Positions 26,007 through 57,783 of a stretch of DNA of 64,000 nucleotides are shown piece by piece. The number at the start of each line of letters is the position of its first letter. Within the stretch, counting starts at the first letter, position 1. Source of the DNA: Dethiobacter alkaliphilus. Lineage in GTDB: Bacteria; Bacillota; Dethiobacteria; DTU022; UBA8154. The notes under the pieces were generated by a model. That model was not told the DNA's origin, searched no databases, and saw nothing but the letters and a program-made list of their open reading frames with translations. The position numbers were made by a program, and so were the translations under genes. The stretch covers positions 165,553-229,552 of the forward strand of contig JAENYV010000001.1 in NCBI GenBank assembly GCA_016841605.1, written 5' to 3'.

Positions 26007-26028
26007 TTTTGGGAGCGGGTTATATCTT

Positions 26029-28500: not shown

Positions 28501-28504
28501 AAGG

Positions 28505-32828: not shown

Positions 32829-32902
32829 TCCGCCTTATTAGGCCGTGCGGATTTTTTTGTAACCGCTATGCAATTTAATGCATATCCGATGACTTGATAA
32901 TA

Positions 32903-32931
32903 TTGACACCCATTTCTTTTTTAAATATAAT
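32903..32931 (+). promoter_or_regulatory. Consensus sigma-70 promoter TTGACA-N17-TATAAT with a roughly 160-nt leader
   Basis: Perfect hexamers. The leader contains the palindrome GGCATAATGCC (about 33061-33071) just before the RBS AAGGAGGAGGAG. Confidence 0.6.
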
Positions 32932-33095
32932 AGCACATGGAAGGTTCATCGCGGTGGACACTACTTGAAGGAGATGAAACAAACAGAAAAAAGAAAAATT
33001 AAGGGGCAGGCTGAAATTCTATCTTTTTGTACCGGTATATGCTGTCGTTATGTCAAAATAGGCATAATGCCTGCTTAATAAAGGAGGAGGAGACA

Positions 33096-43034: not shown

Positions 43035-44177
43035 ATGAGTACAGGAATAATTGATGTCAGGGACTGGCAGGTAACCGTAGATTTCCAAACAGGAAATAAA
43101 ATTGAGCTGGAAAATGAACTTACCGGTATGGTCAGGGAGATTATCCGGAACAACAGATATCCCGGGGATATGGATCTGCGAAGTATTGACTGGGTTACTG
43201 ATATGGGATTAAGGCTGGCGGACAAATACAATCCCGATTTTATGTTCCTCAGCTATGCGCAGCCGTATTTTTTTTCCGCCTATGGGCAGGGTACGCCCGG
43301 GGAATGGGAATCAGTTATGAAAAGAATATTTGACAATGTAGAAAAGTTTCTCGCGGGGACGGACTTTTGGCCTGTTGTGGTCGGACTGGGCCGTATGACC
43401 GATCTGCTGGGAAAAATTGATTTAAGTATTCTTGACTGTTTGGCAATTGCTACCAACTGGTCTTTACAATATGCAGGCCTCTTCAATCCCACGGCGGAGG
43501 ATGTAGAAAAAGTAATGGCCATGCCAAAGCTTGAAAAGGTAATTAGTAAGGAAGATTTTGTTAAGGAGTATGGCGGGAGTGAGAGCTTCATCAAAAGATT
43601 CCCCGACTATCTGCTTACTGCTGAAGAGGGTTATACCTTCAAAGGATTTGAAAGTACCTCCAGAAAAATAAAAAAAATACCTGCTAAAAATATTGAAATA
43701 CCAATATATACTACTTTGGGTGAAGTAAATTCCCTTATTGATATCAGAGGATTAATTGACAGTGTACTGCCGGAGAAAAAAGTAGCCCTGATAGTTATTG
43801 AGGCAATAGGAGCCGGAGACTTCGAGTATGAATATAAGCTATGTTCCAATAAATTAAACTCCTATATATATGAACATATTGAAAGTCAGTACCTGGCCAT
43901 GACAACGGGCAAACACTTTCAGTATCATCCTTTTCCTCCTGTTTTTAAATTTTTCGAAGAAGACAATGAAAATAAAAGTTATCCGTTTTCAGGAAGCCAC
44001 TATACACTTCCACAGGATACCATCGGCAGACGGAAGGATATTAAGAGCGGCGCGGTCGGAACAAGAGGAATGGTAACACATGTGGCAAGTGGAGCGGATA
44101 TTTGTATTGAATGTTATGCCAGACAGCTTTCCAATATGGGAACGCTGGCAGTTATTAATGATACAAAAAATGAATAA
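43035..44177 (+). CDS. Hypothetical cytoplasmic protein (about 380 aa)
   Basis: The ORF opens at 43005 and overlaps the radical SAM gene. A likely start is MSTGIIDV at about 43035. No confident family assignment. Confidence 0.35.
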   Translation: MSTGIIDVRDWQVTVDFQTGNKIELENELTGMVREIIRNNRYPGDMDLRSIDWVTDMGLRLADKYNPDFMFLSYAQPYFFSAYGQGTPGEWESVMKRIFDNVEKFLAGTDFWPVVVGLGRMTDLLGKIDLSILDCLAIATNWSLQYAGLFNPTAEDVEKVMAMPKLEKVISKEDFVKEYGGSESFIKRFPDYLLTAEEGYTFKGFESTSRKIKKIPAKNIEIPIYTTLGEVNSLIDIRGLIDSVLPEKKVALIVIEAIGAGDFEYEYKLCSNKLNSYIYEHIESQYLAMTTGKHFQYHPFPPVFKFFEEDNENKSYPFSGSHYTLPQDTIGRRKDIKSGAVGTRGMVTHVASGADICIECYARQLSNMGTLAVINDTKNE

Positions 44178-44251
44178 CAGTAATAATAAAGAAGGGATAG
44201 AAGAGAAGCCCGCAGAACGTACTGTTTTTTACACTTCCGCGAAAATTTTTG

Positions 44252-44301
44252 TTGACACCCCTTGTTTATACATATATAATTTTCCTGTAGTGGTAAAAAA
44301 G
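44252..44301 (+). promoter_or_regulatory. Promoter/leader module copy A (TTGACA-N17-TATAAT + TGGTAAAAAAG box)
   Basis: Perfect sigma-70 hexamers at 44252-44257 and 44275-44280. The conserved box is at 44291-44301. Confidence 0.7.
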
Positions 44302-44398
44302 ACTATTTTTTTTGCCGCGCAGTTTAAATCCAAGAAGTCCGGTTGTTCGTTTTTTCTATATTATGAAGAAAGTAATATGGGAAAAATATGTTTTGCAA

Positions 44399-44424
44399 GC
44401 ATTATGCCTGTTCAGGCATAATGC
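44399..44424 (+). promoter_or_regulatory. 11-bp-stem hairpin/palindrome gcattatgcct-gttc-aggcataatgc in the 5' leader of the SLH protein gene
   Basis: Perfect inverted repeat containing two copies of the GGCATAATGC element that is also found at 33061. Confidence 0.55.
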
Positions 44425-44464
44425 GACAGATTTTGACGTTATAAAGATAAGGGGTGTCTGAATA

Positions 44465-47400
44465 ATGCTGATTACTAACAAAAATTGGTGGTACAGGCTC
44501 CTGCCGTCTATTTTGATTGTGCTCCTGCTTCCCTGTTTCTTCGGCCTGCCGGTACCGGCCGCTGTTCATTCCGAAGGGGGCATTGTTACAATAACAGAGC
44601 CCACCGGGAATATCAAGAATACCGTTAGCAAGGAAACAGCAAGCGGACCAGGCGGTTCGGCCGGCAACAATGTCACTTTTAAGGACCAGGTTCCCGTATT
44701 TTTGAACATGAATAATCCTGACGGTGTAACCGGGAAAGAAGTGTATGCAGGGCATACCTTATCCGGAACCGACGGCGCAACCCCCGCGGATACAGACAGC
44801 CGTGGATTTATCGTGGTAATGGATGAAGCCGGAATACCAGCTCCGGCTTTGACTGCCGATACCAGCGATAACCTGCTTGGGAAGTCCATAGATATTACCT
44901 TTACGGATAATGCCTCCTGGCGGGCGGCGATTAGCGGTGTGCTTGTGGACGGGGTAGCGCTGCAGTCCGGCAAATACACGGTAAGCGCCGGCAAAATCAG
45001 CATTTCCGGCAGCGTTTTCCAGGAATCGAAAGAATACGCCATTGTAGTTGCAGCCAATGGTTACACCGATGCAAGTGTGAGCCAGATAATCGGTACATTG
45101 ATAATTACCGGAGACGGGGTGACGGATCCCCAAATTTTTACGCAGCCCCAACTCGAGGCAATGCAGCCCCAGCTCGAGGAAATGGAGCCCCAGCATGTTG
45201 TTTACAGTTGCATTAATACCTGGCCCAGCAAGAAATGGTATGTGGGAAAAGGGGTCAAATTAGAAGACCTGCTCACCCAGGCGGGACTGAAAGAAACCGC
45301 CGAACAGATTAAATTCAGTTCCGTTGATGGCTACTATATGACGCTTACAGTCAAGGAGTTATTAACGGACAAGCGTTATTGTTTTCCCAATTTCAAAACC
45401 GGTGGCGACGGAGACGGGCATATTCCCGGTGACCCGTCGGGTGCATTCGAGGTGGAGACTATTCTAGGCCTGGTCAGCGCCGAGGGCACCGACGAATCTT
45501 CCTCTATGAACGATACAAATGCCCTGTTGCTGATGCTGGGGCAGCGGTCAGTTACCGAGCAAACAGGCCCCATATTTGTTAAATACGTCAATAAAATTGA
45601 AGTATTGACTGCTGCACCGGCTAAATGGGATAATCCGACGGCGAGCCCGGATAGTGGCATAGTATCTGCGGGGACCATGGTGGAACTGCATAGCAAGTAC
45701 AACGATTTGGATAAGGTCCATTATACGACGGACGGCAGTACTCCAACCATAGAAAGTCCCATGTATAACTGGATTGCCAGCCGGTGGTGGTCCTCGCGAC
45801 AGGATGTTAAGGACGAAATAAACCACCCGATTGAAATTACAAAGAACACCGCTATTAAGGCAATAGTAATCGGTCCAGGCAAAGAGGACAGCGATATTGT
45901 CACCTTCGAGTACCAGGTTCCTGTTATTATGAACACAGATAATCTTGCCGATGCAACCGAAAACGAAGCATACGCAGGTCATACCTTCACAGCGACAGGC
46001 GGAGCTGAGCCATACAGTTTTGCAGTAACTGCCGGGACACTGCCGGCAGGCATGGTTTTAAACGGTGCCGTATTGGAAGGAACGCCGACTGAGAGTGGGA
46101 CATTTCTCTTCACTGTAACCTTAACGGACAGTGCAGATCCCGCGGATGCAGACAGCCATGAGTTTACCCTGGCGGTTGATGAGGCTGAAGTAGTCACGCC
46201 GGTCTTGAATGCCGATACGACGGACAATAAAGTTGGACAGCCGATCGAGCTGACCTTTACGGATGATGGGCTCTGGCGTTCGGCGATTAGCGGTGTGTTT
46301 GTGGACGAAGTGGTGCTTCAGCCGGAGGAATACACGGTAAGCGCCGGTAAGATTAACATAGCTGCCGGAGTCTTCACGTCAGCAAAAGATTACAGTATCG
46401 TAGTGGAAGCCGAAGGGTACGAAGATGCGGCCGTGACGCAGATTATCACTACGTCGTCAACGCCGGAGACTAAGGAACCACCGGTTCTGACCGCCGATAG
46501 TAGCGATAACCTGAAGGGACGGCCGATCGAGCTGACTTTTACGGATGATGGGCTCTGGCGTTCGGCGATTAGCGGTGTGCTGGTGGACGAAGTGGTGCTT
46601 CAGCCGGAGGAATACACGGTAAGCGCCGGTAAGATTAACATAGCTGCCGGAGTCTTCACGTCAGCAAAAGATTACAGTATCGTAGTGGAAGCCGAAGGGT
46701 ACGAAGATGCGGCCGTGACACAGATTATCACTACGTCGTCAGCGCCGGAAACTAAGGAACCACCGGTTTTGACCGCCGATAATAGCGATAACCTGCTTGG
46801 GCAGGGTATAGATATTACCTTTACGGATGATGGCTCCTGGCGTTCGGCGATTCAAGAGGTTAGTGTGGACGGCGCGGTGCTTCAGCCGGAGAAATACACG
46901 GTTAGTGCCGGTAAGATTGCCATTGTTTCCGGCGTTTTCAAGGAATCGAAAGAATACGCCATCGTAGTTAAAGCAGGCGGGTACCCCGATGCAAGTGTGA
47001 GCCAAACGATTAATAGATTGGTAATTACAGGAGCCGGGGTGACTGAATCCAAGATGTTTACGCAGTCCCAGCTCGAAGCAATGTCGCAGCGCCAGTATGT
47101 GTACAGTTGCATCAATACCTGGCCCAGCAAAAAGTGGTATGTGGGAAAAGGGGTCAAATTGAGCGATCTGCTCACACAGGCGGGGATGAAGGGAAACGCC
47201 AAGCTCATTAAATTTTCTGCCGGCGATGGTTATGCCATGACACTTACTGTTCAGGAAATATTAACGGACAAGCGTTATCGTTTTCCTAATTTCAAGACCG
47301 GTGGCGATGGAGACGGGCATATTCCCGGCGATCCGTCGGGCAAAGTAGAGGTGGAAACTATTCTTGGGCTGGTCAGCGCCGAGGGCACGGACGACCCCTC

Positions 47401-49567
47401 TTATATGAACGACACAAATTCCCTGCTGCTGATGCTGGGACAGCGCTCAGTCATCGAGCAAACCGGCCCCTTATTTGTTAAAAACGTCAATAGAATTGAG
47501 GTACTTACTACTACTCCCGGCAAATGGGATACTCCAAAGGTGACTCCGAGTGGTGGAGAGGTGCCTGTTGGAACCATGGTGGAGCTGCACAGCCTTTTTG
47601 ACGACATGGATAAGGTTCATTACACGATGGACGGCAGTACTCCAACCATAGAAAGTCCCATGTATAACTGGATTGCCAGCCGATGGTGGTCTTCACGGGG
47701 CGAAGAAAAAGTAGCCGAGATTAATCACCCGCTTGAGCTGACAAAAGATACGGTAATCAAAGCAATCACAATTGGTTCCGGTAAGATGAACAGTGATGTT
47801 GTCACCTTTTCCTACAAGGTCAGAACAAGTGCGGACAGCAAAATTACCTCCGGAGAAGGCGGTACAATCAGCCTTGGAGAAGAAGCCGTTCTTGAAATAC
47901 CGGGAGGAGCGCTGACCGGAAGCGGAGCGAGGGAAGTAAAAATAGAACGTGTGGAAACAACTCTCTCGGCCCCGAAGGGCTTCAAGCTACTGGGTAGTGT
48001 ATATGAGTTCAGCGTGGGAGGCAAAAACAGCTACAATTTTGCCAAGAAAGTAACCATTAAGCTCAGCTTTGATGCCGGGGCTGTAAATGCGGACGAGACA
48101 CCGGCCATCCACTATTATGACGAAGCTGCCGGCGAGTGGATAAACCTGGGCGGGGAAGTAAGCGGGAATATAATTACTGTGCAGGTGGATCACTTTACTA
48201 AGTTTGCTGTTATTGCAGCCCTTCCCAGTACTGTGACTGTCAAAGTTGAGCCCCGCGAAGGGGGTACAGTAAGCCTTGGAGAAGAAGCTGTTCTTGCAAT
48301 ACCGGGAGGAGCGCTGACCGGAAGCGGAGCGAGGGAAGTAAAAATAGAACGTGTGGAAACAACTCTCTCGGCCCCGAAGGGCTTCAAGCTACTGGGTAGT
48401 GTATATGAGTTCAGCGTGGGAGGCAAAAACAGCTACAATTTTGCCAAGAAAGTAACCATTAAGCTCAGCTTTGATGCCGGGGCTGTAAATGCGGACGAGA
48501 CACCGGCCATCCACTATTATGACGAAGCTGCCGGCGAGTGGATAAACCTGGGCGGGGAAGTAAGCGGGAATATAATTACTGTGCAGGTGGATCACTTTAC
48601 TAAGTTTGCTGTTATTGCGGCGCTTCCCAGTACTGTGACTGCCAAAGTTGAGCCCCGCGAAGGGGGCACAGTAAGCCTTGGAGAAGAAGCTGTTCTTGCA
48701 ATACCTGAAGGAGCGCTGACCGGAAGCGAAGCACTGGAGGTAAAAATAGAGCGGGTGGTTGTACCTCCTGCTCCACCAGCGGGCTTCAAGCTGCTGAGCG
48801 ATATGTTTGATTTCAGTGTGGACGGCAAGAAGTGGTATCGCTTTGCCGGGGAAGTTACCATCAAGCTCAGCTTCGCTCCTGAGGTAAGAAAAGCGGAAGA
48901 GATCCCGGTTATTTATTGCTACGACGAATTCTCGCGGCGTTGGATAAACCTGGGCGGGGAGATAAACGGGACCACTGTTACTGTACAGGTGGACCACTTC
49001 ACCAAATTTGCCGTAATGGCAGCAATGGAGCAGGGATTGGCAGATATCGCCGGGCACTGGGCGGAATACAGTATTAAAGAACTGCTTACCCTTGGGGCTA
49101 TTAGCGGTTATCCGGACGGCACCTTTAAGCCCGACAAGATAATAACCAGGGCTGAATTTACCACAGTGCTGGCGAAGTCCTTTCAGCTTGAAAACAGGGG
49201 CGAAAAGACCTTTATCGACACTGAGGCACACTGGGCCAAAAATTACATAGCTGCGGCAGTAGCGGAGGGTATTGTCAATGGCTATGACACCGCGACCTTC
49301 GGACCGGATAATCCGGTCACCCGCGAGCAGATGGCTGTGATGACCGTCAAGGCGGCCAAAGTATCTCCGGAAGCAGGAGAGCCCCTCTTTGACGACAGCG
49401 GCAGTATCTCCGCGTGGGCCGGGGAAGCCCTGGTCACAGCGATGGAGAACGGGCTCATAGAGGAATATGCCGATAACACCGTCCGGCCTCAGAACAGTGC
49501 CACCAGGGCCGAAGCTGTTACAGTTATTGTGAATGCGTTGCATAAGGCGGGAGAGAGGAAAATATAA
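44465..49567 (+). CDS. Large S-layer-homology (SLH) cell-surface protein with two divergent sulfite-oxidase-fold domains, two CHB_HEX_C domains, an Ig-like domain, 4x approximately 91-aa 'ADTSDN...ITFTDD' repeats, 3x 134-aa repeats and 3 C-terminal SLH domains
   Basis: 1700 aa with a Sec signal peptide. The SO-like domains lie at about 45110-45620 and 47030-47520 (YSCINTWPSKKWYVGKGVKL...LLLMLGQR...FVKYVNKIEV). The CHB_HEX_C-like domains are recognised by HYTTDGSTPTIESPMYNWIA. The SLH region is at about 49020-49560 (AGHWAEYSIKELLTLGAISGYPDGTFKPD). Confidence 0.85.
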   Translation: MLITNKNWWYRLLPSILIVLLLPCFFGLPVPAAVHSEGGIVTITEPTGNIKNTVSKETASGPGGSAGNNVTFKDQVPVFLNMNNPDGVTGKEVYAGHTLSGTDGATPADTDSRGFIVVMDEAGIPAPALTADTSDNLLGKSIDITFTDNASWRAAISGVLVDGVALQSGKYTVSAGKISISGSVFQESKEYAIVVAANGYTDASVSQIIGTLIITGDGVTDPQIFTQPQLEAMQPQLEEMEPQHVVYSCINTWPSKKWYVGKGVKLEDLLTQAGLKETAEQIKFSSVDGYYMTLTVKELLTDKRYCFPNFKTGGDGDGHIPGDPSGAFEVETILGLVSAEGTDESSSMNDTNALLLMLGQRSVTEQTGPIFVKYVNKIEVLTAAPAKWDNPTASPDSGIVSAGTMVELHSKYNDLDKVHYTTDGSTPTIESPMYNWIASRWWSSRQDVKDEINHPIEITKNTAIKAIVIGPGKEDSDIVTFEYQVPVIMNTDNLADATENEAYAGHTFTATGGAEPYSFAVTAGTLPAGMVLNGAVLEGTPTESGTFLFTVTLTDSADPADADSHEFTLAVDEAEVVTPVLNADTTDNKVGQPIELTFTDDGLWRSAISGVFVDEVVLQPEEYTVSAGKINIAAGVFTSAKDYSIVVEAEGYEDAAVTQIITTSSTPETKEPPVLTADSSDNLKGRPIELTFTDDGLWRSAISGVLVDEVVLQPEEYTVSAGKINIAAGVFTSAKDYSIVVEAEGYEDAAVTQIITTSSAPETKEPPVLTADNSDNLLGQGIDITFTDDGSWRSAIQEVSVDGAVLQPEKYTVSAGKIAIVSGVFKESKEYAIVVKAGGYPDASVSQTINRLVITGAGVTESKMFTQSQLEAMSQRQYVYSCINTWPSKKWYVGKGVKLSDLLTQAGMKGNAKLIKFSAGDGYAMTLTVQEILTDKRYRFPNFKTGGDGDGHIPGDPSGKVEVETILGLVSAEGTDDPSYMNDTNSLLLMLGQRSVIEQTGPLFVKNVNRIEVLTTTPGKWDTPKVTPSGGEVPVGTMVELHSLFDDMDKVHYTMDGSTPTIESPMYNWIASRWWSSRGEEKVAEINHPLELTKDTVIKAITIGSGKMNSDVVTFSYKVRTSADSKITSGEGGTISLGEEAVLEIPGGALTGSGAREVKIERVETTLSAPKGFKLLGSVYEFSVGGKNSYNFAKKVTIKLSFDAGAVNADETPAIHYYDEAAGEWINLGGEVSGNIITVQVDHFTKFAVIAALPSTVTVKVEPREGGTVSLGEEAVLAIPGGALTGSGAREVKIERVETTLSAPKGFKLLGSVYEFSVGGKNSYNFAKKVTIKLSFDAGAVNADETPAIHYYDEAAGEWINLGGEVSGNIITVQVDHFTKFAVIAALPSTVTAKVEPREGGTVSLGEEAVLAIPEGALTGSEALEVKIERVVVPPAPPAGFKLLSDMFDFSVDGKKWYRFAGEVTIKLSFAPEVRKAEEIPVIYCYDEFSRRWINLGGEINGTTVTVQVDHFTKFAVMAAMEQGLADIAGHWAEYSIKELLTLGAISGYPDGTFKPDKIITRAEFTTVLAKSFQLENRGEKTFIDTEAHWAKNYIAAAVAEGIVNGYDTATFGPDNPVTREQMAVMTVKAAKVSPEAGEPLFDDSGSISAWAGEALVTAMENGLIEEYADNTVRPQNSATRAEAVTVIVNALHKAGERKI
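46241..46786 (+). repeat. Two near-identical tandem copies of a roughly 273-bp coding repeat
   Basis: 46241-46513 and 46514-46786 are nearly identical at the nucleotide level (ccgatcgagctgac...gaaccaccggtt). They encode the ADTSDN/ITFTDD-type domain. Confidence 0.85.
47850..49015 (+). repeat. Three tandem copies of a roughly 400-bp coding repeat (copies 1 and 2 identical over more than 330 bp; copy 3 diverged)
   Basis: ccgggaggagcgctgaccggaagcggagcgagggaagtaaaaatagaacgtgtggaaac recurs at 47900 and 48302. The units encode the approximately 134-aa VKIERVETTLSAPKGFKLLGSVYEFSVGG...VDHFTKFAV domain. Confidence 0.85.
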
Positions 49568-49620
49568 CGGCACAACCTGTTGAGAAACCAAGATTTTCCG
49601 AAACGGAGTGAAAGTGAAAA

Positions 49621-50205
49621 TTGAGTAAAATGTACCGGAAAAGAATTTCCTTTATAACAACTATAACAACGCTATCGTTATTGTTTTTTCTTCTAATGCT
49701 TTACCTTACGTTTTTGGCCGGATGTCAGGGTGGTCAGCCGACTTCAGCCGGAGAAGGTATTCTAGTAATACGGGGGGATGCTGTGGAAGGTGAAGTTTGC
49801 CTTACCCTGGATGAATTAAAGTCCATGGAGGACGGCCTGATTGAAGACGATTATTTTTCCGTTAATTCATACGGGACAAAGGAGTATTTTCATTTCAAGG
49901 GCATCTGGATCTGGCATGTTTTACAAGAAAAAACGGACTTAAAGGATAATGCCTCCAAGGTGACTTTCATTGCAGAGGACGGTTACACAGTGGAATACAC
50001 GCTGGAAGAGGTCAAGAGGGAAGATTATATTGACGAGCAAAATCCTGCGACAAAGTACAAGATGATCCTGGCCTGGGAAGAAAATGGAAAAGAGTATGAT
50101 CCGGATGAAGGCAATCCCTTTCAACTGGTCGTCGGTCAAAAGGAGCCGGGTGATGAAAACAAACCATACTGGGTGCGCAATGTAAAGACCATCCGCATTG
50201 ATTGA
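49621..50205 (+). CDS. Lipoprotein consisting of a single divergent sulfite-oxidase/YedY-fold (Oxidored_molyb-like) domain lacking the Mo-ligand Cys
   Basis: Lipobox LAGC. ILAWEENGKEYDPDEGNPFQLVVGQKEPGDENKPYWVRNVKTIRI aligns to the SO-family hallmark LLAYEMNGEPL..GFPLRLVVPG..G..VKWL..IEV. Confidence 0.6.
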   Translation: MSKMYRKRISFITTITTLSLLFFLLMLYLTFLAGCQGGQPTSAGEGILVIRGDAVEGEVCLTLDELKSMEDGLIEDDYFSVNSYGTKEYFHFKGIWIWHVLQEKTDLKDNASKVTFIAEDGYTVEYTLEEVKREDYIDEQNPATKYKMILAWEENGKEYDPDEGNPFQLVVGQKEPGDENKPYWVRNVKTIRID

Positions 50206-50261
50206 AGAAAGCAGGCCGACAACCGGTGAGTGAGAATGGTTCCTAAACTGGAGGTTATAGC

Positions 50262-51344
50262 GTGGAAGAAAAAATGAAAAAACATAAGAACTATTACCTG
50301 AGCAATCGGGATCTGCTTATTGTTGCTGTTTTGAGCGGTATCGGAGGAGTGATGAGTACCTATATCGGCTATCTGGGCAATCTCCTGAACCGTATTTGCG
50401 GTGTTCCTTTCGGTGCGGGACAGTTCGTCTCCGGTTTGCATATTTTCTGGTTTATCCTGGTGGCGGGGCTGATCAGGCGACCGGGAGCTGTTACCGTCGC
50501 GGGTCTGCTCAAAGGAGTAATTGAATTGCTCACCGGCAGTACCCACGGGGTTGTCATTGTCTTGATTTCTCTGATACAGGGTCTTATCGTCGATGTTGTC
50601 CTTCTGATTGCCAGGCGCCGGAATTTGGGAAGCTATATGCTGGCCGGCGGGCTTTCCGCCGCCTCAAATGTTTTTGTCTTTCAGCTCCTCTACTTTTCCG
50701 GTGTCCCTTTCACCTATCTTCTCTTTATAGGACTTTTAGCCTTTGTTTCCGGAGTTCTTCTGGCAGGCAGCTTTGGTCACAGTGTGCTGGATATTGTGTT
50801 GCAGGCCAGGCCTTTTCGTTTGGCCGATGCTTCAAGGGAAGAGACAGCCGCAACAGCCGCGACCCCCGGGAGCAAAAAAAGAGTCCTCCCCCGTTTAAGG
50901 ATTGCTGCAACGGTTCTACTGGTTGTGCTGTTTTTTATTGGTGCGGTTTATTACTTTACCGCTGTCTTTGAACCTCCCTGGGTAGGCCCCAGCTGCCGGG
51001 TAGAAGGAGCGGTAGAAAACCCCCTCTCTTTCCAGCTTTCCCGTTTCGACCGGTATGAAACAACCATAACCGCCGAATTAAAGGGGCAGGTTAGCTACAT
51101 CCCTCCGCAGGAGTATACAGGCATCCCCTTAAGTATAATTCTCCAGGAGGCCTCTCCCCTGGATGAGGCTAAAAAGCTTAAAGTTATGGCAACGGATGGT
51201 TATATGGTGGAATTTGAACTGCAAGAAGTGTTAAATGACGACCTGATGGTACTGATCCGGGAAGAAGATATGCTTCGCCTTATAGCCGGAAATTACGAAG
51301 GAGGATACTGGGTGAAACTGGTAAACAGAATGATAGTGGAATAA
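50262..51344 (+). CDS. Fusion protein: N-terminal polytopic membrane domain (5-6 TM, ECF-transporter S-component-like) + C-terminal sulfite-oxidase-fold domain
   Basis: GTG start. TM region 1-190. The C-terminus (ATDGYMVEFELQEV...LIAGNYEGGYWVKLVNRMIVE) is SO-like. It ends at an in-frame TAA, after which the same frame encodes a CHB_HEX_C domain. Confidence 0.55.
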   Translation: MEEKMKKHKNYYLSNRDLLIVAVLSGIGGVMSTYIGYLGNLLNRICGVPFGAGQFVSGLHIFWFILVAGLIRRPGAVTVAGLLKGVIELLTGSTHGVVIVLISLIQGLIVDVVLLIARRRNLGSYMLAGGLSAASNVFVFQLLYFSGVPFTYLLFIGLLAFVSGVLLAGSFGHSVLDIVLQARPFRLADASREETAATAATPGSKKRVLPRLRIAATVLLVVLFFIGAVYYFTAVFEPPWVGPSCRVEGAVENPLSFQLSRFDRYETTITAELKGQVSYIPPQEYTGIPLSIILQEASPLDEAKKLKVMATDGYMVEFELQEVLNDDLMVLIREEDMLRLIAGNYEGGYWVKLVNRMIVE

Positions 51345-51656
51345 ATAAATCTTATTACTGAGGAAGAGCCGGACCAATGGGATGAGCCGACCTCATCGCA
51401 TGTATCGGGGACGGTAACGGCCGGGACACAGGTAACGCTCAATCATACCGGTATCAACGAGGTGAGAATTTATTATACAACTGACAGCAGCACCCCGGAT
51501 GTGAACAGTACCATGTACAATGTAAGCGCTACCTACTACCAGCCGCAGTTGAACGTACCTATTACGATCAACCAAACTGCTACAATTAAGGCTATCGCCA
51601 TCGGACCGGGTAAAACCGATAGCGATGTAGCTGTTTGGACCTATATGTTGGAATAA
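51345..51656 (+). pseudogene. Orphan CHB_HEX_C domain in frame with, and immediately downstream of, the stop codon of the 50262 gene
   Basis: Translation ...EEEPDQWDEPTSSHVSGTVTAGTQVTLNHTGINEVRIYYTTDSSTPDVNSTMYNV...IKAIAIGPGKTDSDVAVWTYMLE is colinear with the domain that follows the SO-like domain in every paralog. There is no start codon except an internal GTG at 51462. Confidence 0.6.
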
Positions 51657-51697
51657 CTGTTTTGGCTAAAGACAGCTAATGTTGTTGTCTAAAACGG

Positions 51698-52543
51698 TTA
51701 AACGGCTATCATGGTTACACCGATATTTACAGGCCGGCCAAAATACATGGAAGTGGTAACGATGGCATCCACTCCTGTTGCCGCATATTTTTCAACATTA
51801 GTTTCGTTTATTCCCCCGGCGGCAATGGTCAGAATGTGCGGGAAATCTTTTTTTATCTCCCGGACCAGGTCGGCTATTTTTTCGGGAGACAATTTATCAA
51901 ACTGTAACCCGTCAATACCCGCGTTGCATAAATAATCTGCTTCTTCCGGTTGTTCAATTTCTACGATTATCTTTTTTTCACAGGTTTTTGTTTTTAATTC
52001 CTGTATTTTTGCAGCCAGTTTGTCCTCCGATTCCAGGAAAACCCGGTGATGCTTAAAAATAAGTATTGTTTCCGATAAGCCGAGCCGGTGAGGAAAACCT
52101 CCGCCGCTCAAAACAGCCTTAATGGATAATTCTTTTGTTCCCGGGAATACCTTTCTTGTTGATAGTATAGAGACGTTCCGGTTTACTTTCTTCGCTTTTT
52201 CTACCAGCTTGTTGGTGCGAGAAGCCACTGCACTGGCATACTCCAGGATATTCTGGGAAGGTTTCCAGAGCAGGTGCAAAACATCTGCTTTACCGCTAAT
52301 TTTCATAAAGATCTGTCCGGGAAGGACTTTCGAACCTGAAGGGGTATATTCGAGCACCCGGCCTCCCTTTAGCTCACACAAACGTGCAATTTCCTCCGTG
52401 CCGCAAAGAACGGCTTCATCCCTGCTGAGGAAGTGCATTTCTCCGTCCCGGCTACCGATATTCAACATAAAGGTAGTGAGATCCATGTAAGGAGTATCTT
52501 CTTTAAGCCATTTTTCTAAAGTATCATTGGTGATATTAACCAT
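51698..52543 (-). CDS. modD: ModD/NadC-family quinolinate-phosphoribosyltransferase-like protein (probable molybdenum utilisation protein ModD)
   Basis: 281-aa type II PRTase fold (NadC-like). Assigned to ModD rather than NadC because of the Mo/W transporter context and because no nadA/nadB are nearby. Confidence 0.65.
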   Translation of the reverse strand: MVNITNDTLEKWLKEDTPYMDLTTFMLNIGSRDGEMHFLSRDEAVLCGTEEIARLCELKGGRVLEYTPSGSKVLPGQIFMKISGKADVLHLLWKPSQNILEYASAVASRTNKLVEKAKKVNRNVSILSTRKVFPGTKELSIKAVLSGGGFPHRLGLSETILIFKHHRVFLESEDKLAAKIQELKTKTCEKKIIVEIEQPEEADYLCNAGIDGLQFDKLSPEKIADLVREIKKDFPHILTIAAGGINETNVEKYAATGVDAIVTTSMYFGRPVNIGVTMIAV

Positions 52544-52731
52544 GTTAAATCCTCCTGTATAGAATTAAGAGACCATCAAGCATTTAACAGACCGGACATT
52601 ACACGAAAGGACTGTTGATTTAGGGGAAGTATACCAAATTTCCTCCTTTATGTAAAGATATGCATATCCATGTGTCTCAATATGATTATATTAAGGGGCA
52701 AAATAAGCTGCAAATCAAAGTAGTTTTTCTG

Positions 52732-52781
52732 TTGACCCTCTTATTTTTATCATATATAATTTTCATGTATTGGTAAAAAAG
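52732..52781 (+). promoter_or_regulatory. Promoter/leader module copy B (TTGACC-N17-TATAAT + TGGTAAAAAAG box)
   Basis: Hexamers at 52732-52737 and 52755-52760. Box at 52771-52781. Confidence 0.7.
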
Positions 52782-52906
52782 ACTAACTTTTGTGGTTACC
52801 AGCAATATGCATGCCGAAACATATCGCGCCTCAAGAGAGCGCTACCAGGTCCGGGACTGTTAATTATTTTTAATATACTGAATAAGACGGGAGAGAGGAG
52901 AGTATA

Positions 52907-54655
52907 ATGGCGCAGGGAAATAATCTTCAATTAAAAAAATGGTTGTATAAGCAATTAATAACCATTCCAGCTCTGTTATTACTTACTGCTTCGTTTTATC
53001 TGACGGCGCCTGCGGTTGCTTTGGCCATACAGTCGGACTCGCTGGAAATTATCGGGGACGGGGTGACGACTCCTGTGACGTTCACCTTGGCCGAGCTTGA
53101 GGCGATGAAGCAATACGAGCAAGTCTACAGTACGATCAACACTTATCCGACCAAGAGATGGTACACGGCAAGAGGGGTTAAATTGAGGAACCTGCTTGCT
53201 TTGGCAGGAATGACAGAAGAAGCCGAAATGATTAAGTTTATATCCAATGATGGCTACGATGTGACCCTTACGGTTAAAGAACTGCTGGAAGACAAACGGT
53301 ATTATTTTCCGGGTTTAAAGGAGAATCATCCCAGTGATGGAAGCATTCCAGGTTCTCCGGAGGGGGCGCAGGAGGTTGAGCCTATCCTTGCCCTTATCAG
53401 TGCCGAGGGCAGTGACAATCCGGCTAATATGAACGACAGGGATTTCTTGCTGCTGATGCTGGGGCAGCGGGCCGTAACCGAGCAGACGAATAATTTGTTT
53501 TTAAAATATACAAGTAGAATCGAGGTGCTTACCACTGCTCCGGAAAAATGGGATAGTCCGAAGACGAGTATTCCGGACGGCACCGTGCTGCCTCCGGGGA
53601 TCATGCTGGAATTGAGCAATAAGGGCAATGACGATGATAAAATTTATTATACCCTGGACGGCAGCACTCCCACGGTGAACAGCCCTATGTTTAACTGGAG
53701 CGCCAGTCGCTGGTGGCCTTTACGAGCGAATGACCTGGAGAGTGTCAACAGGCCGATCGAGCTTACGGAGGACACCGTCCTCAAGGCCATCACCATCGGT
53801 CCCGGCAGGGAGGATAGCGATGTGGTCACGTTTACCTTCACTACTGATCCCACGGCTGTGGACCCGACGAAGATCCCCGGCGGACCGCCGACCGGCGTGA
53901 CCCTCGACCGCAATGCAATTGACCTCAAAGTCGGCGCCACTTTTCAGCTGCAGGCGACGATAGCTCCGTACAATGCCACGGACCGGAGCGTAACCTGGAG
54001 TTCCAGTGATACCAGGACGGCCACGGTGGATAACAATGGCCTGGTAACCGTTGTCGGCCCGGGCTCGGCTACCATCACCGTAAAAACTTTAGTCGGCAAA
54101 TATATATCCTCCTGCATCGTGAACGGTCCTGAACAGGATGATGATGAAGGGGGCGCTATAATTGCCGGTCCCGTTTCTCCGGAAAATGAAGCCCAGGAGG
54201 ATCCTTTGGAGCCGTCGGCGGAAGAACCATTGGTGGAAGAGATTCAAGAAGAGGAGCTTTCAGTAGAGGAGCCGCCGCCATTACCGGAAGATGATCAGCA
54301 GTTCGTGGAAGATAAGGTTACGGCTGATCCCGCGACAGCACCTTCAAAAACCCCTGATAAAGCACCGGACTCTTCCGATGAACCACCAGTGGATGAGTTG
54401 CCTGTACCGGATGTCAAAGGGCAGTATTTGGCGGAAAAGGATGCAGTAGCACTCGCTTCACCCGCTGGCGATGTTTCCTCAGAACAGCCGGGTAGCCTTA
54501 CCCGGCAGATATTCGAAATGTCGCTTGATGTTACTGTACCATTGCCATTACAGGAGGTGCAAAACGAACTGAATATTTATACTGCTGCTATTTTCCTGTT
54601 TCTTTTTCTTTCCGGTATAAGCAAAAAAATCGTAGAATATGCAAAGGAGCTTTGA
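52907..54655 (+). CDS. Secreted/membrane-anchored protein: sulfite-oxidase-fold domain + CHB_HEX_C + Big_2 Ig-like domain + acidic Pro/Glu-rich linker + C-terminal hydrophobic anchor
   Basis: Signal peptide, and YSTINTYPTKRWYTARGVKL (the Cys position is Thr here). The Big_2 motif is VTLDRNAIDLKVGATFQLQATIAPYNATDRSVTWSSSD. C-terminal TM segment is IYTAAIFLFLFLSGI. Confidence 0.75.
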   Translation: MAQGNNLQLKKWLYKQLITIPALLLLTASFYLTAPAVALAIQSDSLEIIGDGVTTPVTFTLAELEAMKQYEQVYSTINTYPTKRWYTARGVKLRNLLALAGMTEEAEMIKFISNDGYDVTLTVKELLEDKRYYFPGLKENHPSDGSIPGSPEGAQEVEPILALISAEGSDNPANMNDRDFLLLMLGQRAVTEQTNNLFLKYTSRIEVLTTAPEKWDSPKTSIPDGTVLPPGIMLELSNKGNDDDKIYYTLDGSTPTVNSPMFNWSASRWWPLRANDLESVNRPIELTEDTVLKAITIGPGREDSDVVTFTFTTDPTAVDPTKIPGGPPTGVTLDRNAIDLKVGATFQLQATIAPYNATDRSVTWSSSDTRTATVDNNGLVTVVGPGSATITVKTLVGKYISSCIVNGPEQDDDEGGAIIAGPVSPENEAQEDPLEPSAEEPLVEEIQEEELSVEEPPPLPEDDQQFVEDKVTADPATAPSKTPDKAPDSSDEPPVDELPVPDVKGQYLAEKDAVALASPAGDVSSEQPGSLTRQIFEMSLDVTVPLPLQEVQNELNIYTAAIFLFLFLSGISKKIVEYAKEL

Positions 54656-54661
54656 AGCAAG

Positions 54662-55333
54662 GTGACGGAATCTATTTTATTATCCTTAAAAGATACCATG
54701 CATGTCATCTCGTCAAATTTATTGATACCTACTATTATTATCCTGCTCCTACTTTTGGCTTTGACCGTAGTCGAACTCGGCGGTATTCTGGCGGAAACCC
54801 TGACGGAAAGACGCAGGATGAAAGTCGACGTGTCGGAGTTGGTTGACGCTTTTCAAGGGAAGGATGCCGGCAAGATTATGGACAAGATCGAGCATAGCCT
54901 TTTGTTACGGCGTCAGAAGAAGGTTCTCGGCAAGCTAATCAGGCACAGCAATTTGCCGTCTGCCTCGTTGCAGGCACTGGCGCGCCGCTTGCTTGCCGGT
55001 GAGGAACTGCATTATACCAAGATAACAAACAGGACCGATCTGGTGGTGCGTTTGGGTCCCATGTTCGGATTGATGGGCACTCTCATTCCACTAGGGCCGG
55101 GTATGATCGCCCTCGGCCAGGGGGATACCAAGACACTGGCAGATTCTCTGCTCATCGCCTTTGACACAACAATAACCGGCCTGGCAGCCGCGGGTATTGC
55201 TTTTGCCATTTCCCGGTTACGGAAACGGTGGTATGATGATTACTTGAGTAATCTGGAGGCCTTAATGGAGAGCCTATTGGAGGTGTTTGCTCATGAACGG
55301 GGGATTGAGAAGCAGGAGGTACAGGACGCATAG
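54662..55333 (+). CDS. exbB: MotA/TolQ/ExbB-family proton channel protein
   Basis: LGPMFGLMGTLIPLG...LADSLLIAFDTTITGLAAAGIAFAI is the ExbB/TolQ signature. Confidence 0.8.
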   Translation: MTESILLSLKDTMHVISSNLLIPTIIILLLLLALTVVELGGILAETLTERRRMKVDVSELVDAFQGKDAGKIMDKIEHSLLLRRQKKVLGKLIRHSNLPSASLQALARRLLAGEELHYTKITNRTDLVVRLGPMFGLMGTLIPLGPGMIALGQGDTKTLADSLLIAFDTTITGLAAAGIAFAISRLRKRWYDDYLSNLEALMESLLEVFAHERGIEKQEVQDA

Positions 55334-55619
55334 GGAATCAGAAGATATCAATCCTCTGGAGGGCGTTATCAACATTGTAGATGCCATGCTGGTATTTGCC
55401 TGCGGACTTATGCTTGCTTTGGCTGTTTACTGGAACATCGACCTGGGCCCCATAGGAGAACGAATCAATATAAACCGTGGACGGGAGGTGACGGAAGTCC
55501 CGGAGTTACGTGACGACCTGATTGAAACCCAAGACCAGGGAAAGCTTTACGAAAGAATGGGCACCGTCTATAAAGACCCCGCAACCGGGCAGCTTTTTAT
55601 GCTGACCGACGAGGAATAA
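55287..55619 (+). CDS. exbD: ExbD/TolR-family protein
   Basis: INPLEGVINIVDAMLVFACGLM matches the ExbD pattern of a single TM plus a periplasmic domain. It overlaps the exbB 3' end. The exact start is uncertain. Confidence 0.6.
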   Translation: MLMNGGLRSRRYRTHRESEDINPLEGVINIVDAMLVFACGLMLALAVYWNIDLGPIGERININRGREVTEVPELRDDLIETQDQGKLYERMGTVYKDPATGQLFMLTDEE

Positions 55620-55643
55620 TAAAGATAAGGGGGGACTAGATCA

Positions 55644-57122
55644 ATGCAAGCTGATAAAAGGAAAGGGGAGACACCCCCGGCATATCCGCCGGAATCTTCT
55701 CAGTTAAAGAGATGGATTTACAGGTCCATGATGATTGTCCTGGGTATGTTAATGCTGGTAAGTATGTTTTACATGCCGTTGCCCGCGGTTGTCCATGCCG
55801 CGACGGACTCGCTGGAAATTACCGGAGACGGGGTGACGGACCCGCTGACCCTGACCCTGACCCAGTTAGAGGAAATGGAGCAATACCAGTATACATACAG
55901 TTGTATTAACACGTGGCCTACCAAAAAATGGTATGTAGGTAAAGGAGTTAAATTGAGCGATCTGCTCGCCAGGGCGGGGATGACCGATGAGGCCAGGCTG
56001 CTTAAATTTACGGCTGTCGACGGTTACACAGTGACGCTTACGGTCAAGGAACTGTTAAAAGATAAGCGTTATCGTTTTCCCAATTTCAAGAGCGGTGGCG
56101 GCGATGGTGACGGGCATACTCCGGGCGATCCTTCGGGTCAGGTGGAGGTAGTGACGATTATCGGCCTGGTCAGCGTCGAAGGCAGCGATAATCCCCAGTA
56201 TATGAACGATCTGAATACTTTGCTGTTGATGCTGGGGCAGCGTGCTGTAACTGAGCAGACAGGAAACCTTTTCGTTAAATATCTGAACAAGATCGAAGTA
56301 CTTACGGACGAGCCGGAAAAATGGGATGCACCGCAGGCCAATCCGGACAGTAGCACAGTGCCCGCGGGAACCATGGTGACACTGAGCAATCTCCACAATG
56401 ATGACGACAAAATTTATTATACCACGGACGGCAGTGAGCCGACCCGGAACAGCCCCATGTATAACTGGATTGCCAAGCGCTGGTGGTCATCACGGGCGGA
56501 TGTACTGGGAACCATCAATCACCCTATCGGACCCATTGAGAAAGATACAATCATCAAGGCGGTTACCATCGGACCCGGTAAAGCGGACAGCGATGTCGTT
56601 ACCTTCAAATATCAGGTTTCCGGGGCTGAGCCGGACAACGGGACATCAACGTCAACAGTCACACCCGGTCCGGAAGAGTCTGAGACAACAGAAGAACACG
56701 GGACAGATGAAATGAAAGGCGAAGTACCCGGGAAACCGTCGCAAAAAATTATCAAGCTTGCCATTGACCGGATGGAAGCGGATATTGACGGCAATACCTG
56801 CGCTCTGGAGGCAGCACCTTATCTCAACACCGAGGTCGGTCGTGTCCTGGTTCCGGTACGGTTTGTCAGCGAAGCCCTGGGTGCCGGAGTTAATTGGAAC
56901 CCGGAAAAAGGACAGATAACCGTCACCGATGAAGGAAAAGAAATTCTCCTGACCCTCGGTTCCGGCAATGTTCAGATCAACGGTATACCGCAGGCCGTTG
57001 ATTGTGTTCCGGTTACACTCCCGCCCGGCCGTACTTTTATCCCCCTCCGCTTTGTGAGTGAGACCCTTGGAGCGAAGGTGGGCTACAAAGCAGAGACCGG
57101 AGAGATCACCATCACAAGATAG
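55644..57122 (+). CDS. Secreted protein: sulfite-oxidase-fold domain (Cys retained) + CHB_HEX_C + copper-amine-oxidase-N-terminal-like cell-wall domain
   Basis: Signal peptide and YSCINTWPTKKWYVGKGVKLSDLL. The C-terminus (VLVPVRFVSEALGAGVNWNPEKGQITVT...FIPLRFVSETLGAKVGY) matches the Cu_amine_oxidN1 domain used as a wall anchor in Clostridia. Confidence 0.75.
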   Translation: MQADKRKGETPPAYPPESSQLKRWIYRSMMIVLGMLMLVSMFYMPLPAVVHAATDSLEITGDGVTDPLTLTLTQLEEMEQYQYTYSCINTWPTKKWYVGKGVKLSDLLARAGMTDEARLLKFTAVDGYTVTLTVKELLKDKRYRFPNFKSGGGDGDGHTPGDPSGQVEVVTIIGLVSVEGSDNPQYMNDLNTLLLMLGQRAVTEQTGNLFVKYLNKIEVLTDEPEKWDAPQANPDSSTVPAGTMVTLSNLHNDDDKIYYTTDGSEPTRNSPMYNWIAKRWWSSRADVLGTINHPIGPIEKDTIIKAVTIGPGKADSDVVTFKYQVSGAEPDNGTSTSTVTPGPEESETTEEHGTDEMKGEVPGKPSQKIIKLAIDRMEADIDGNTCALEAAPYLNTEVGRVLVPVRFVSEALGAGVNWNPEKGQITVTDEGKEILLTLGSGNVQINGIPQAVDCVPVTLPPGRTFIPLRFVSETLGAKVGYKAETGEITITR

Positions 57123-57241
57123 TTCTTTCTTACAATCAGGCCTTAACACTGCCAGAGCCGTTTGACGTAGTGAATACGGCTCTGGCCTAGAAAACGGCTG
57201 TATTTGGGCAATATCCATGGTGACTGAAACATACGCTTTAT

Positions 57242-57303
57242 GTTGACAACTTTTTGTTGACACCCCTTGTTTTTCCTATATAATTTAGTTGATTGGTAAA
57301 AAA
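57242..57303 (+). promoter_or_regulatory. Promoter/leader module copy C (two TTGACA, TATAAT, TGGTAAAAAAG box)
   Basis: TTGACA at 57242 and 57256. TATAAT at about 57278-57283. Box at 57293-57303. Confidence 0.65.
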
Positions 57304-57420
57304 GCCAACTTTTTGCAGTAATATTAAATACAAACCGGTCAATTGTTATTTTAACAGGCACAATTAAGCATGAAGGGGTTTTTTTACGCACATTATGTCT
57401 GAATTGGCATATTGATGGCA

Positions 57421-57745
57421 CTTAAACGGAAAACATTCGCCTTCGAGGAGAGATGTTCGCAGGGACCATGGTGGAATTGAGTTCTCTTGAGGCCTTGATG
57501 GATAGTCTGTTGAAGGTAGTTTTTCCGTGGACGGGGGATGGGAGCATAAGGCAATGCTTAAAGCTTCTGATGAGGATAATCCTCCGGATAAACTGACGAC
57601 ATCGTGAAAATTATGTCGGTAGTTGTTTGCAGTAGTATTTGCATCGGCTATTTATTGTTAGGAAGATCCCGGCCTGGCAGAGAGCTCAGTAGTTTAAAAT
57701 TATTGGACGGGAGGTGACATAAGTCCCGGAGATACGTATCGTTCA
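57421..57745 (+). pseudogene. Decayed remnants of a second exbB 3' end/exbD copy
   Basis: 57470-57600 shows nucleotide similarity to the 55240-55380 exbB/exbD junction (gagttctcttgaggccttgatggatagtctgttgaaggt vs gagtaatctggaggccttaatggagagcctattggaggt). 57690-57740 shows similarity to the exbD interior (ggacgggaggtgacataagtcccggagatacgt vs ggacgggaggtgacggaagtcccggagttacgt). No intact ORF remains. Confidence 0.5.
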
Positions 57746-57783
57746 AGAAGAAGAAAATCAAGTATTAAAGGAGTGTATGCTCA

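Follow-up and report, generated by a model that had tools for sequence, protein, structure and literature searches.

In a stretch of 64,000 nucleotides (nt) from Dethiobacter alkaliphilus (contig JAENYV010000001.1, positions 165,553 to 229,552; hereafter the window), a molybdenum (Mo) uptake operon lies directly upstream of genes for a family of large surface proteins. An initial annotation of this DNA had proposed that three copies of one promoter and leader module, marked by a conserved box, TGGTAAAAAAG, head the surface-protein operons. Three such blocks of about 75 nt are indeed present on the plus strand, each consisting of a promoter with the invariant TGGTAAAAAAG 9-10 nt after it, and their arrangement supports the view that they are promoter-like heads of three transcription units:

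44246-44322, plus strand: module copy 1, with -35 hexamer TTGACA at 44252-44257, -10 hexamer TATAAT at 44275-44280 and box TGGTAAAAAAGACTATTTTTTTTGCC at 44291-44316; predicted start site at about 44287; followed by the 44465 (1700 amino acids (aa), SLH), 49621 and 50262 genes
52726-52802, plus strand: module copy 2, with -35 hexamer TTGACC at 52732-52737, -10 hexamer TATAAT at 52755-52760 and box TGGTAAAAAAGACTAACTTTTGTGGTTACCA at 52771-52801; followed by the 52907 (582 aa), exbB-like 54662, DUF2149 55287 and 55644 genes
57250-57320, plus strand: module copy 3, with -35 hexamer TTGACA at 57257-57262, -10 hexamer TATAAT at 57279-57284 and box TGGTAAAAAAGCCAACTTTTTGC at 57294-57316; followed by a leader of about 490 nt and the gene for a giant LRR/NosD-like protein from 57784

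A promoter scan of 14 kb (44000-58000) returned the three copies as its three best sites, with scores of 12/12, 11/12 and 12/12 for copies 1-3. Their hexamers and spacers (17, 17 and 16 nt) are those of sigma-A/sigma-70 promoters, for which a spacer of 16-18 nt was accepted. The box begins 10, 10 and 9 nt past the -10 hexamer in copies 1, 2 and 3 and occurs nowhere else in the window. When TGGTAAAAAAGMCYAA was searched with up to two mismatches, all three matches in the 64 kb fell at the modules, as compared to 0.22 matches expected, and none of 100 shuffled sequences gave three. For copy 3 the initial annotation had set the start at 57242; the module is present there, but this start is too early because of a spare TTGACA (57244-57249) just upstream of the block. 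The alignment of the three regions that had been suggested delimited an island of about 75 nt with 73-79% pairwise identity amid otherwise unalignable DNA; identity falls to 14-50% in the remaining leader and to 3-32% over the 80 nt preceding the block. Within the island, the core bounded by the -35 hexamer and the box end looked more similar still when the alignments were judged by eye, and copies 1 and 3 are identical at 18/18 nt around the -35 hexamer. The box itself had been called invariant, which holds for its first 11 nt but not for the remainder (GACTATTTTTTTTG, GACTAACTTTTGTG, GCCAACTTTTTGC), which varies in both sequence and length.

Judged by their sequences, all three blocks go back to a single promoter of the housekeeping-sigma (sigma-A/sigma-70) type with its start-site region, of which they are paralogous copies. 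That the three heads would descend from duplicated operon heads follows from the 60-80% DNA-level identity of the surface-protein paralogs behind them and from remnants of exbB and DUF2149 in the leader of copy 3. The latter had been annotated as a decayed exbBD pair, and weak tblastn matches within 57477-57779 point to such remnants:

57477-57536, plus strand: decayed C-terminus of exbB in the copy 3 leader (60% identity over 20 aa, E 0.006)
57705-57779, plus strand: decayed DUF2149 in the copy 3 leader (E 0.007)

Copy 3 may thus have arisen from a duplicated unit of the copy 2 type. The triplication of the promoter is in itself an ordinary outcome of operon-head duplication.

Each of the three leaders contains a second element, a 7-N8-7 palindrome (44401-44422, 52804-52825 and 57392-57413) that fits the published ModE operator RTTATGT-N8-RCATAAY. 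This motif was confirmed by electrophoretic mobility shift assay in M. acetivorans (PMC12327845), and the E. coli ModE consensus has an equal architecture (PMC545781). Further sites of this type accompany the neighbouring Mo genes, and the features of this part of the locus are as follows, with leader positions marked by a plus sign that presuppose a start 7 nt past the -10 hexamer:

31662-32828, plus strand: candidate regulator gene, encoding a ModE-type DNA-binding domain (aa 12-107) fused to a TupA-like tungstate/molybdate-binding domain (aa 135-375)
32865-32886, plus strand: palindrome GCTATGC-AATTTAAT-GCATATC, just 5' of the -35 hexamer of the 32903 promoter
32903-32931, plus strand: fourth consensus promoter, TTGACACCC...-17-TATAAT, heading the Mo-uptake operon
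33047-33068, plus strand: perfect palindrome GTTATGT-CAAAATAG-GCATAAT in the 5' untranslated region of the Mo-uptake operon, at about +110 and 28 nt before TTG 33096
44401-44422, plus strand: palindrome ATTATGC-CTGTTCAG-GCATAAT in the copy 1 leader, at about +115 and 42 nt before ATG 44465
51698-52543, minus strand: modD
52647-52668, plus strand: palindrome TTTATGT-AAAGATAT-GCATATC in the divergent region between modD and copy 2, overlapping a promoter-like site of the minus strand
52804-52825, plus strand: palindrome AATATGC-ATGCCGAA-ACATATC in the copy 2 leader, at about +38 and abutting the 3' end of the copy 2 box
57392-57413, plus strand: palindrome ATTATGT-CTGAATTG-GCATATT in the copy 3 leader, at about +102

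The core of these sites, TATG-N10-CATA, was found seven times in the 64-kb window as compared to 0.80 expected, and none of 100 shuffles reached seven. Six of the seven core sites are situated in non-coding DNA of the locus (one per leader, a pair flanking the 32903 promoter and a single site in front of modD), and these six show at most one mismatch to the local consensus RTTATGY-N8-RCATAWY. In sequence the sites thus match the ModE operator, binding itself being predicted, and their context is likewise that of a ModE regulon, as they adjoin the modABC operon, modD and the three leaders in a locus that includes a ModE-family regulator gene. In a sister metagenome-assembled genome (MAG; L017, 93% protein identity) in which the orthologous copies 2 and 3 are present, three orthologous palindromes are kept, and the copy 2 site differs at just two positions, both within the 8-nt spacer. 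The intergenic alignments with this MAG have mean column identities of 89% and 96%, which is too close for footprinting.

The protein encoded at 31662 matches TIGR00637 (1e-19) and NF041772 (6e-45) at the domain level, and ModE (PDB 1B9M/1O7L) and TupA (3LR1/5MY5) in structure. To our knowledge, fusion regulators of this ModE-N/TupA type have so far not been characterised experimentally. The earlier suggestion that this ModE-N/periplasmic-binding-protein regulator be tested was well aimed. TunR, a tungstate regulator, was set aside as a relative, being of another architecture with a XerC/D-like DNA-binding domain. The region just upstream of the regulator gene (25948-31568) encodes a pair of histidine kinases with PAS/GAF domains as well as a response regulator of the REC-HD-GYP type, and no DNA-binding output domain was seen among the three. 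The REC-HD-GYP protein, which had also been put forward as a binder, has no DNA-binding domain among its Pfam matches. The Mo-uptake operon that follows the regulator gene encodes, according to Pfam, a FecCD-type ABC transporter, a CobW-like GTPase, modABC and a radical SAM protein; the true start of its first gene is likely TTG 33096, which would open a lipoprotein signal. Its promoter has the -35 hexamer and spacer start of copies 1 and 3, but no TGGTAAAAAAG box.

We further compared the window with L017, L018, L020-L023, L068, L070, L072, L073 and L074 with regard to the box, the palindrome and the Moco/tungsten-cofactor riboswitch (Rfam RF01055; Regulski et al. 2008, PMC2408646). Desulfotomaculaceae, Pelotomaculum, Sporotomaculum and related MAGs commonly encode homologs of the 582-aa protein. 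Seven relatives that share 55-69% protein identity with the window (L018, L020-L023, L068 and L070) contain 14 matches to RF01055 with 47-71 bits, the gathering score being 36:

L068 2902-3028 and L018 3757-3873 (the latter just past a consensus promoter): before the gene for the big SLH protein
L020 9883-10005: before the ortholog of the 582-aa protein gene
L018 14087-14206, L068 10693-10811 and L070 4345-4465: between the Cu_amine_oxidN1 and giant protein genes
L021 20157-20273, L022 20304-20420 and L023 20304-20420: before the last large surface-protein gene
L021 385-505 and 2736-2856, L022 1388-1509, and L023 1488-1609 plus 1658-1779 (in tandem): further matches

As a side observation, the riboswitch in relatives heads orthologous surface-protein, ECF-transporter and ApbE operons. 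Its position at orthologous heads indicates that in these relatives the surface-protein operons belong to the regulon of the Mo/tungsten (W) cofactor. There was no match to RF01055 at the gathering score in the window, L017, L072 or L073, and none in the window leaders at E values up to 5. Since neither the window nor L017 has the riboswitch, another element must replace it in this lineage.

Two more distant loci are informative in this respect. In L073 the regulator (78% identical) is encoded directly upstream of the 582-aa/exbB/DUF2149 operon, and the 346-nt intergenic region between them contains TTGACA-17-TATACT, then TGTAATGGTAAA and then two ModE-like palindromes, with no riboswitch. In L074 the regulator (61% identical) precedes a tupA-like ABC operon, the leader of which holds the single core palindrome of 18 kb. 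The L074 promoter, TTGACACCGCTTGTTTTAATATGTATAAT, closely resembles copies 1 and 3, spacer included. In a separate observation, a -35 hexamer with the spacer start TTGACACCnCTTGTTT (TTGACACCCATTTCTTT at 32903) was found to be common to the promoters at 32903-32931, 44252-44280, 57257-57284 and L074 8141-8169. Although the L074 regulator is only 61% identical, the L074 promoter thus has the -35 hexamer and spacer start of the putative regulon, and from these comparisons the -35-proximal spacer start may be a recognition element in its own right.

The observed conservation of the modules, the enrichment and placement of the palindromes, the domains of the regulator and the riboswitches of relatives are consistent with one overall picture, which we consider probable: strong promoters whose output is subject to Mo/W regulon control through ModE-type palindromes and the 31662 protein. 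Co-regulation of the three units is well supported and a shared regulator very probable; the initial annotation had likewise implied co-regulation, by a single factor or at the RNA level, yet the shared regulator would probably act via the palindromes rather than via the box. In terms of mechanism, the strong sigma-A promoters would fire constitutively. When Mo/W is plentiful, the ModE-N/TupA-like protein would bind molybdate or tungstate and, loaded with the oxyanion, would occupy the palindromes, both those within transcribed leaders and those flanking the uptake-operon promoter, blocking transcription either as a roadblock or by occlusion of weak inner promoters. When Mo/W is scarce, it would leave these sites, and the surface proteins, the ExbB/DUF2149 pair and transporter parts would be made at a high level. 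In this lineage, such protein-based control by the 31662 protein and its palindromes would have replaced the RNA-based control by riboswitch of related genera.

Several points weigh against this picture. The start sites, the binding partners and the direction of regulation, i.e. repression, are predictions from sequence. Operators at +100 to +115 would be unusually far downstream for a bacterial repressor, although a roadblock at that distance is plausible. Three of the six palindromes are in homologous leaders and thus cannot be counted as independent. An inverted repeat within a transcribed leader might just as well act as an RNA hairpin, and the 32865 site alone appears to be outside the transcript. 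The fusion regulator might recognise another site, conceivably the box, and the copy numbers of palindrome and box refer to the 64-kb window. Finally, no core palindrome was found in about 150 kb of the riboswitch-bearing loci, an absence that is not significant alone as about two would be expected by chance.

Two side observations concern the surroundings of the palindromes. In several leaders a run of 4-8 T is located 6-7 nt 5' of the palindrome (57378-57391, 44390-44400, L073 2535-2549 and L074 8233-8245). The right arm CATAAT resembles a -10 hexamer, for instance in TTGCAA-18-CATAAT at 44393-44422, and it is possible from such resemblances that weak inner promoters are overlapped by the palindrome operator.

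What, then, is the box? Its 5' half, TGTAnTGGTAAA, is kept in the distant orthologous promoter of L073, where 23/26 positions match copy 2 from the -10 region to TGGTAAA (hand count), while the A-run and the A/T hairpin at the 5' end are gone. As the L073 ortholog of the 582-aa protein is only 56% identical, neutral DNA should be randomised at this distance, and the persistence of TTTTCnTGTAnTGGTAAA suggests that this segment, which extends from the discriminator over the start site and the first dozen bases of the transcript, is the constrained part and under selection across genera. Because TTTTCnTGTAnTGGTAAA was kept and the hairpin lost, recognition of the box as DNA, be it by RNA polymerase or by a second protein, is more likely than a role as RNA structure. 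The promoters at 32903 and modD are without the box, so this is not what the regulon as a whole has in common. On this sequence evidence, we take the box to be the conserved start-site and initial transcribed segment of the promoter.

Some observations on the module stand apart from this. An open reading frame (ORF) starts inside the box in each copy (44288-44430, 52770-52906 and 57293-57364) and in L073 (2496-2570), with GTG, TTG, TTG and ATG, respectively, followed by GTA AAx and comprising 43, 45, 24 and 24 codons; in copy 2 its stop codon, within TAATG, shares bases with the start codon of the 582-aa gene. The copy 1 leader contains a further palindrome, TTTTTTCTATATTAT...GTAATATGGGAAAAA, at 44340-44385 that was not found in copies 2 and 3 and that contributes to the unusually stable fold of the whole leader (-53.4 kcal/mol, z -4.6). 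Other known motifs were rejected upon inspection: a sigma-54 reading of TGG...TTGC has a wrong and variable GG-to-GC spacing, the E. coli-type TATAT-N7-TAYAT or a ModE half-site within the -10 region gave poor matches only, and the CodY box AATTTTCWGAAAATT matches at no more than 10/15 positions over the -10 and start region.

The initial annotation had favoured an operator or an RNA element in the box, which it placed at about +4 to +25, a position that presupposes a start 7 nt past the -10 hexamer. If the box were an operator, a regulator bound at +4 to +30 (the 31662 protein via a second type of site, or another factor) would block initiation or promoter escape. Eleven invariant nt at the classic position of a repressor in three paralogs, the retention of TGTAnTGGTAAA in L073 despite 56% protein identity, and the fact that sequence rather than structure is conserved all speak for this. 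However, the 32903 and modD promoters carry palindromes but no box, and the sequence that matches a known operator is the palindrome; moreover, the box has no dyad of fixed spacing (the outer TGGTAA/TTACCA-like arms are 19, 15 and 13 nt apart), it is unlike the published ModE motifs, and no candidate second regulator was found, which together make this explanation unlikely. An RNA role would be that of a 5'-terminal stem-loop (GGUAAAAAAG-loop-CUUUUUGCC) shielding the long mRNAs from 5' exonuclease. Stabilising stem-loops at the 5' end and long leaders are a feature of B. subtilis aprE and the S-layer gene slpA of Lactobacillus, and the modules resemble these in that a strong promoter is followed by a long leader ahead of genes for surface proteins, with a possible hairpin that begins no more than 5 nt from the 5' end. 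In all three copies the A run pairs with a later U run despite differing loops and registers, the single base that differs in L017 copy 2 is located in a predicted bulge, and the copy 1 hairpin is strong from the predicted first nucleotide on (-13 kcal/mol, z -3.6). Copies 2 and 3, however, fold no better than shuffled sequences (-6.1 and -4.0 kcal/mol; z -0.2 and 0.0), and copy 3 favours an alternative pairing. In this test on few sequences, a hairpin within about 5 nt of the 5' end was thus convincing in one of three copies, unlike in the known stabilisers, and L073 has TGGTAAA without a 5' hairpin. Stems of A and U only would also be marginal in a possibly thermophilic Pelotomaculum relative, and the leaders match no known RNA family, neither at the gathering score nor at E values up to 5. 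We therefore rate an RNA element as quite improbable.

Selection on the box would be superfluous if it had no function of its own and were conserved through recent copying or gene conversion together with the promoter. The paralogy of the downstream genes, the remnants of a duplicated copy-2-type unit in copy 3 and the 18/18 identity of copies 1 and 3 noted above agree with this, but the leaders and upstream flanks have diverged to background and the coding paralogs are only 60-80% identical. The start-site segment, moreover, survives in L073 where neutral DNA would not, and such a relic is very improbable. It seems still less probable that the box is the beginning of a tiny ORF, (A/G/T)TG GTA AAx, on a (nearly) leaderless mRNA, the loading of ribosomes on which would affect stability or expression. 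The sole variable base in TGTAnTGGTAAA is the first of this NTG (G, T, T and A in copies 1, 2, 3 and L073, never C), and open frames of the lengths given above follow, one of them with its stop overlapping the ATG of the 582-aa gene. Yet there is no Shine-Dalgarno sequence, the start codon would not coincide with the predicted 5' end but be 2-4 nt away from it, GTG and TTG serve poorly as starts on leaderless mRNAs, the peptides have nothing in common past MVK(K), and by our own estimate the open frames are only mildly unlikely in DNA of this composition. That the motif is part of a mobile element or dispersed repeat with no relation to transcription, the scenario that had been named as a refutation, can practically be dismissed: the three copies in 64 kb are all intergenic and facing genes, none being in coding DNA. 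Scans of 185,579 species genomes and of metagenome contigs gave scattered single matches without the rest of the module. In the species genomes, TATATAATTTN{6,10}TGGTAAAAAAG matched 16 times singly in unrelated phyla, and the one Dethiobacter match among these has neither a -35 hexamer nor the other parts of the module. None of 44 matches to TTGACN{19,22}AATTTN{6,9}TGGTAAAAAAG in the metagenome scan continues like the box, and all look like chance. No box-like motif was found next to a promoter in the relatives at 55-69% protein identity either, which, together with the lack of other copies in the scans, indicates that the module is confined to a narrow lineage.

The genes headed by the three modules encode a paralogous family of surface proteins (44465, 52907, 55644 and 57784), each of which opens with a weak Oxidored_molyb-like domain. 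According to Pfam, the 44465 protein (1700 aa) has SLH and Shr-like HID domains, the 55644 protein (492 aa) a Cu_amine_oxidN1 domain, and the 57784 protein (>2072 aa) LRR_5 and NosD domains; the 52907 protein has 582 aa. The operons further encode a MotA/ExbB-like protein (54662, 223 aa), a DUF2149 protein (55287, 110 aa) and an ECF-S-like membrane protein (50262). Pfam matches to Oxidored_molyb were obtained for five proteins and are weak, and a domain is shared by the N-termini of the products of 52907-54655, 44465, 55644, 57784, 49621 and 50262. The AlphaFold model of the 582-aa protein has a mean pLDDT of 67, with 80-93 for the N-terminal domains, and Foldseek related it to SorA, SorT, SoxC and plant sulfite oxidase (E ~1e-8) over both the Moco and Ig domains. 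Across 29 homologs there was no invariant cysteine in the N-terminal domain, as judged without an alignment of the Mo-ligand Cys position. The N-termini of the surface proteins are of the Sec type, not the Tat type. Based on this modelling, the N-terminal domain may be a non-catalytic receptor for a cofactor or oxyanion. The MotA/ExbB-DUF2149 pair is of a type reportedly named for the hmu heme-uptake system of Porphyromonas. Taken together, the Mo/W-linked control and a sulfite-oxidase fold without an invariant cysteine suggest a surface capture system. We tentatively propose, as a possibility rather than a probability, that the operons encode an undescribed Gram-positive surface system for the capture of Mo/W or their pterin cofactor that would be switched on under Mo/W scarcity, through a Moco riboswitch in some lineages and a ModE-N/TupA repressor in others; conserved gene neighbourhoods with riboswitches are compatible with this. 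Its parts, which are speculative, would be the S-layer-anchored sulfite-oxidase-fold proteins, the MotA/ExbB-DUF2149 pair and an ECF-type membrane component, and in that case the TGTAnTGGTAAA start-site element would add another control input that only this regulon has.

Some further remnants and genes were noted in passing. Between the 50262 gene and modD, at 51345-51700, there is a non-coding Fn3_assoc/CHB_HEX_C remnant, a pseudogene fragment with 42-44% identity over about 100 aa to the surface proteins of the window (E ~1e-21); in L017 a 64-aa ORF is called at this position. L017 3833-4745 has ORFs of 158 and 69 aa in place of the exbB-like (223 aa) and DUF2149 (110 aa) genes of the window, which may reflect frameshifts, decay or assembly errors. 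A ModE-type match with one mismatch, GTTCTGTT-N6-AACAGAAC at 23489-23510, is near the 5' end of a LanM gene and probably unrelated:

20277-23546, minus strand: gene for a LanM-type lanthipeptide synthetase (DUF4135 and LANC_like)

The type of regulon proposed here is already known, while its targets are unusual. Like the ModE regulons of E. coli (modABC/moa) and M. acetivorans (anf/vnf/mod), it has 7-N8-7 AT-rich inverted repeats adjoining genes for molybdate/tungstate transport, its locus encodes a regulator whose N-domain is a winged helix of the ModE type, and the expected logic is that uptake genes are repressed when the metal is plentiful. It differs from these in that the sensor of the regulator has a TupA-like periplasmic-binding-protein fold instead of the Mop/TOBE domains of ModE, that most sites are 38-115 nt downstream of a consensus promoter and not over it, and that the predicted targets include S-layer-type surface proteins and the ExbB/DUF2149 pair. 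The RF01055 riboswitch, which is found at the equivalent heads of orthologous operons in Sporotomaculum, Pelotomaculum and related MAGs, by analogy probably serves an equal regulatory purpose, although it is an RNA that senses the cofactor and not, as proposed for the window, a protein that senses the oxyanion. The locus would thus represent a natural regulatory replacement at orthologous operon heads, with a riboswitch in some Desulfotomaculia and a ModE-type operator in others, so that the two strategies could be compared on the same genes. It also provides a concrete candidate operator for a regulator in which a ModE DNA-binding domain is fused to a TupA-like sensor. Lastly, it would place a large and widespread clostridial family of surface proteins, together with the ExbB/DUF2149 pair, in the Mo/W economy of the cell, which offers a testable idea of their function.

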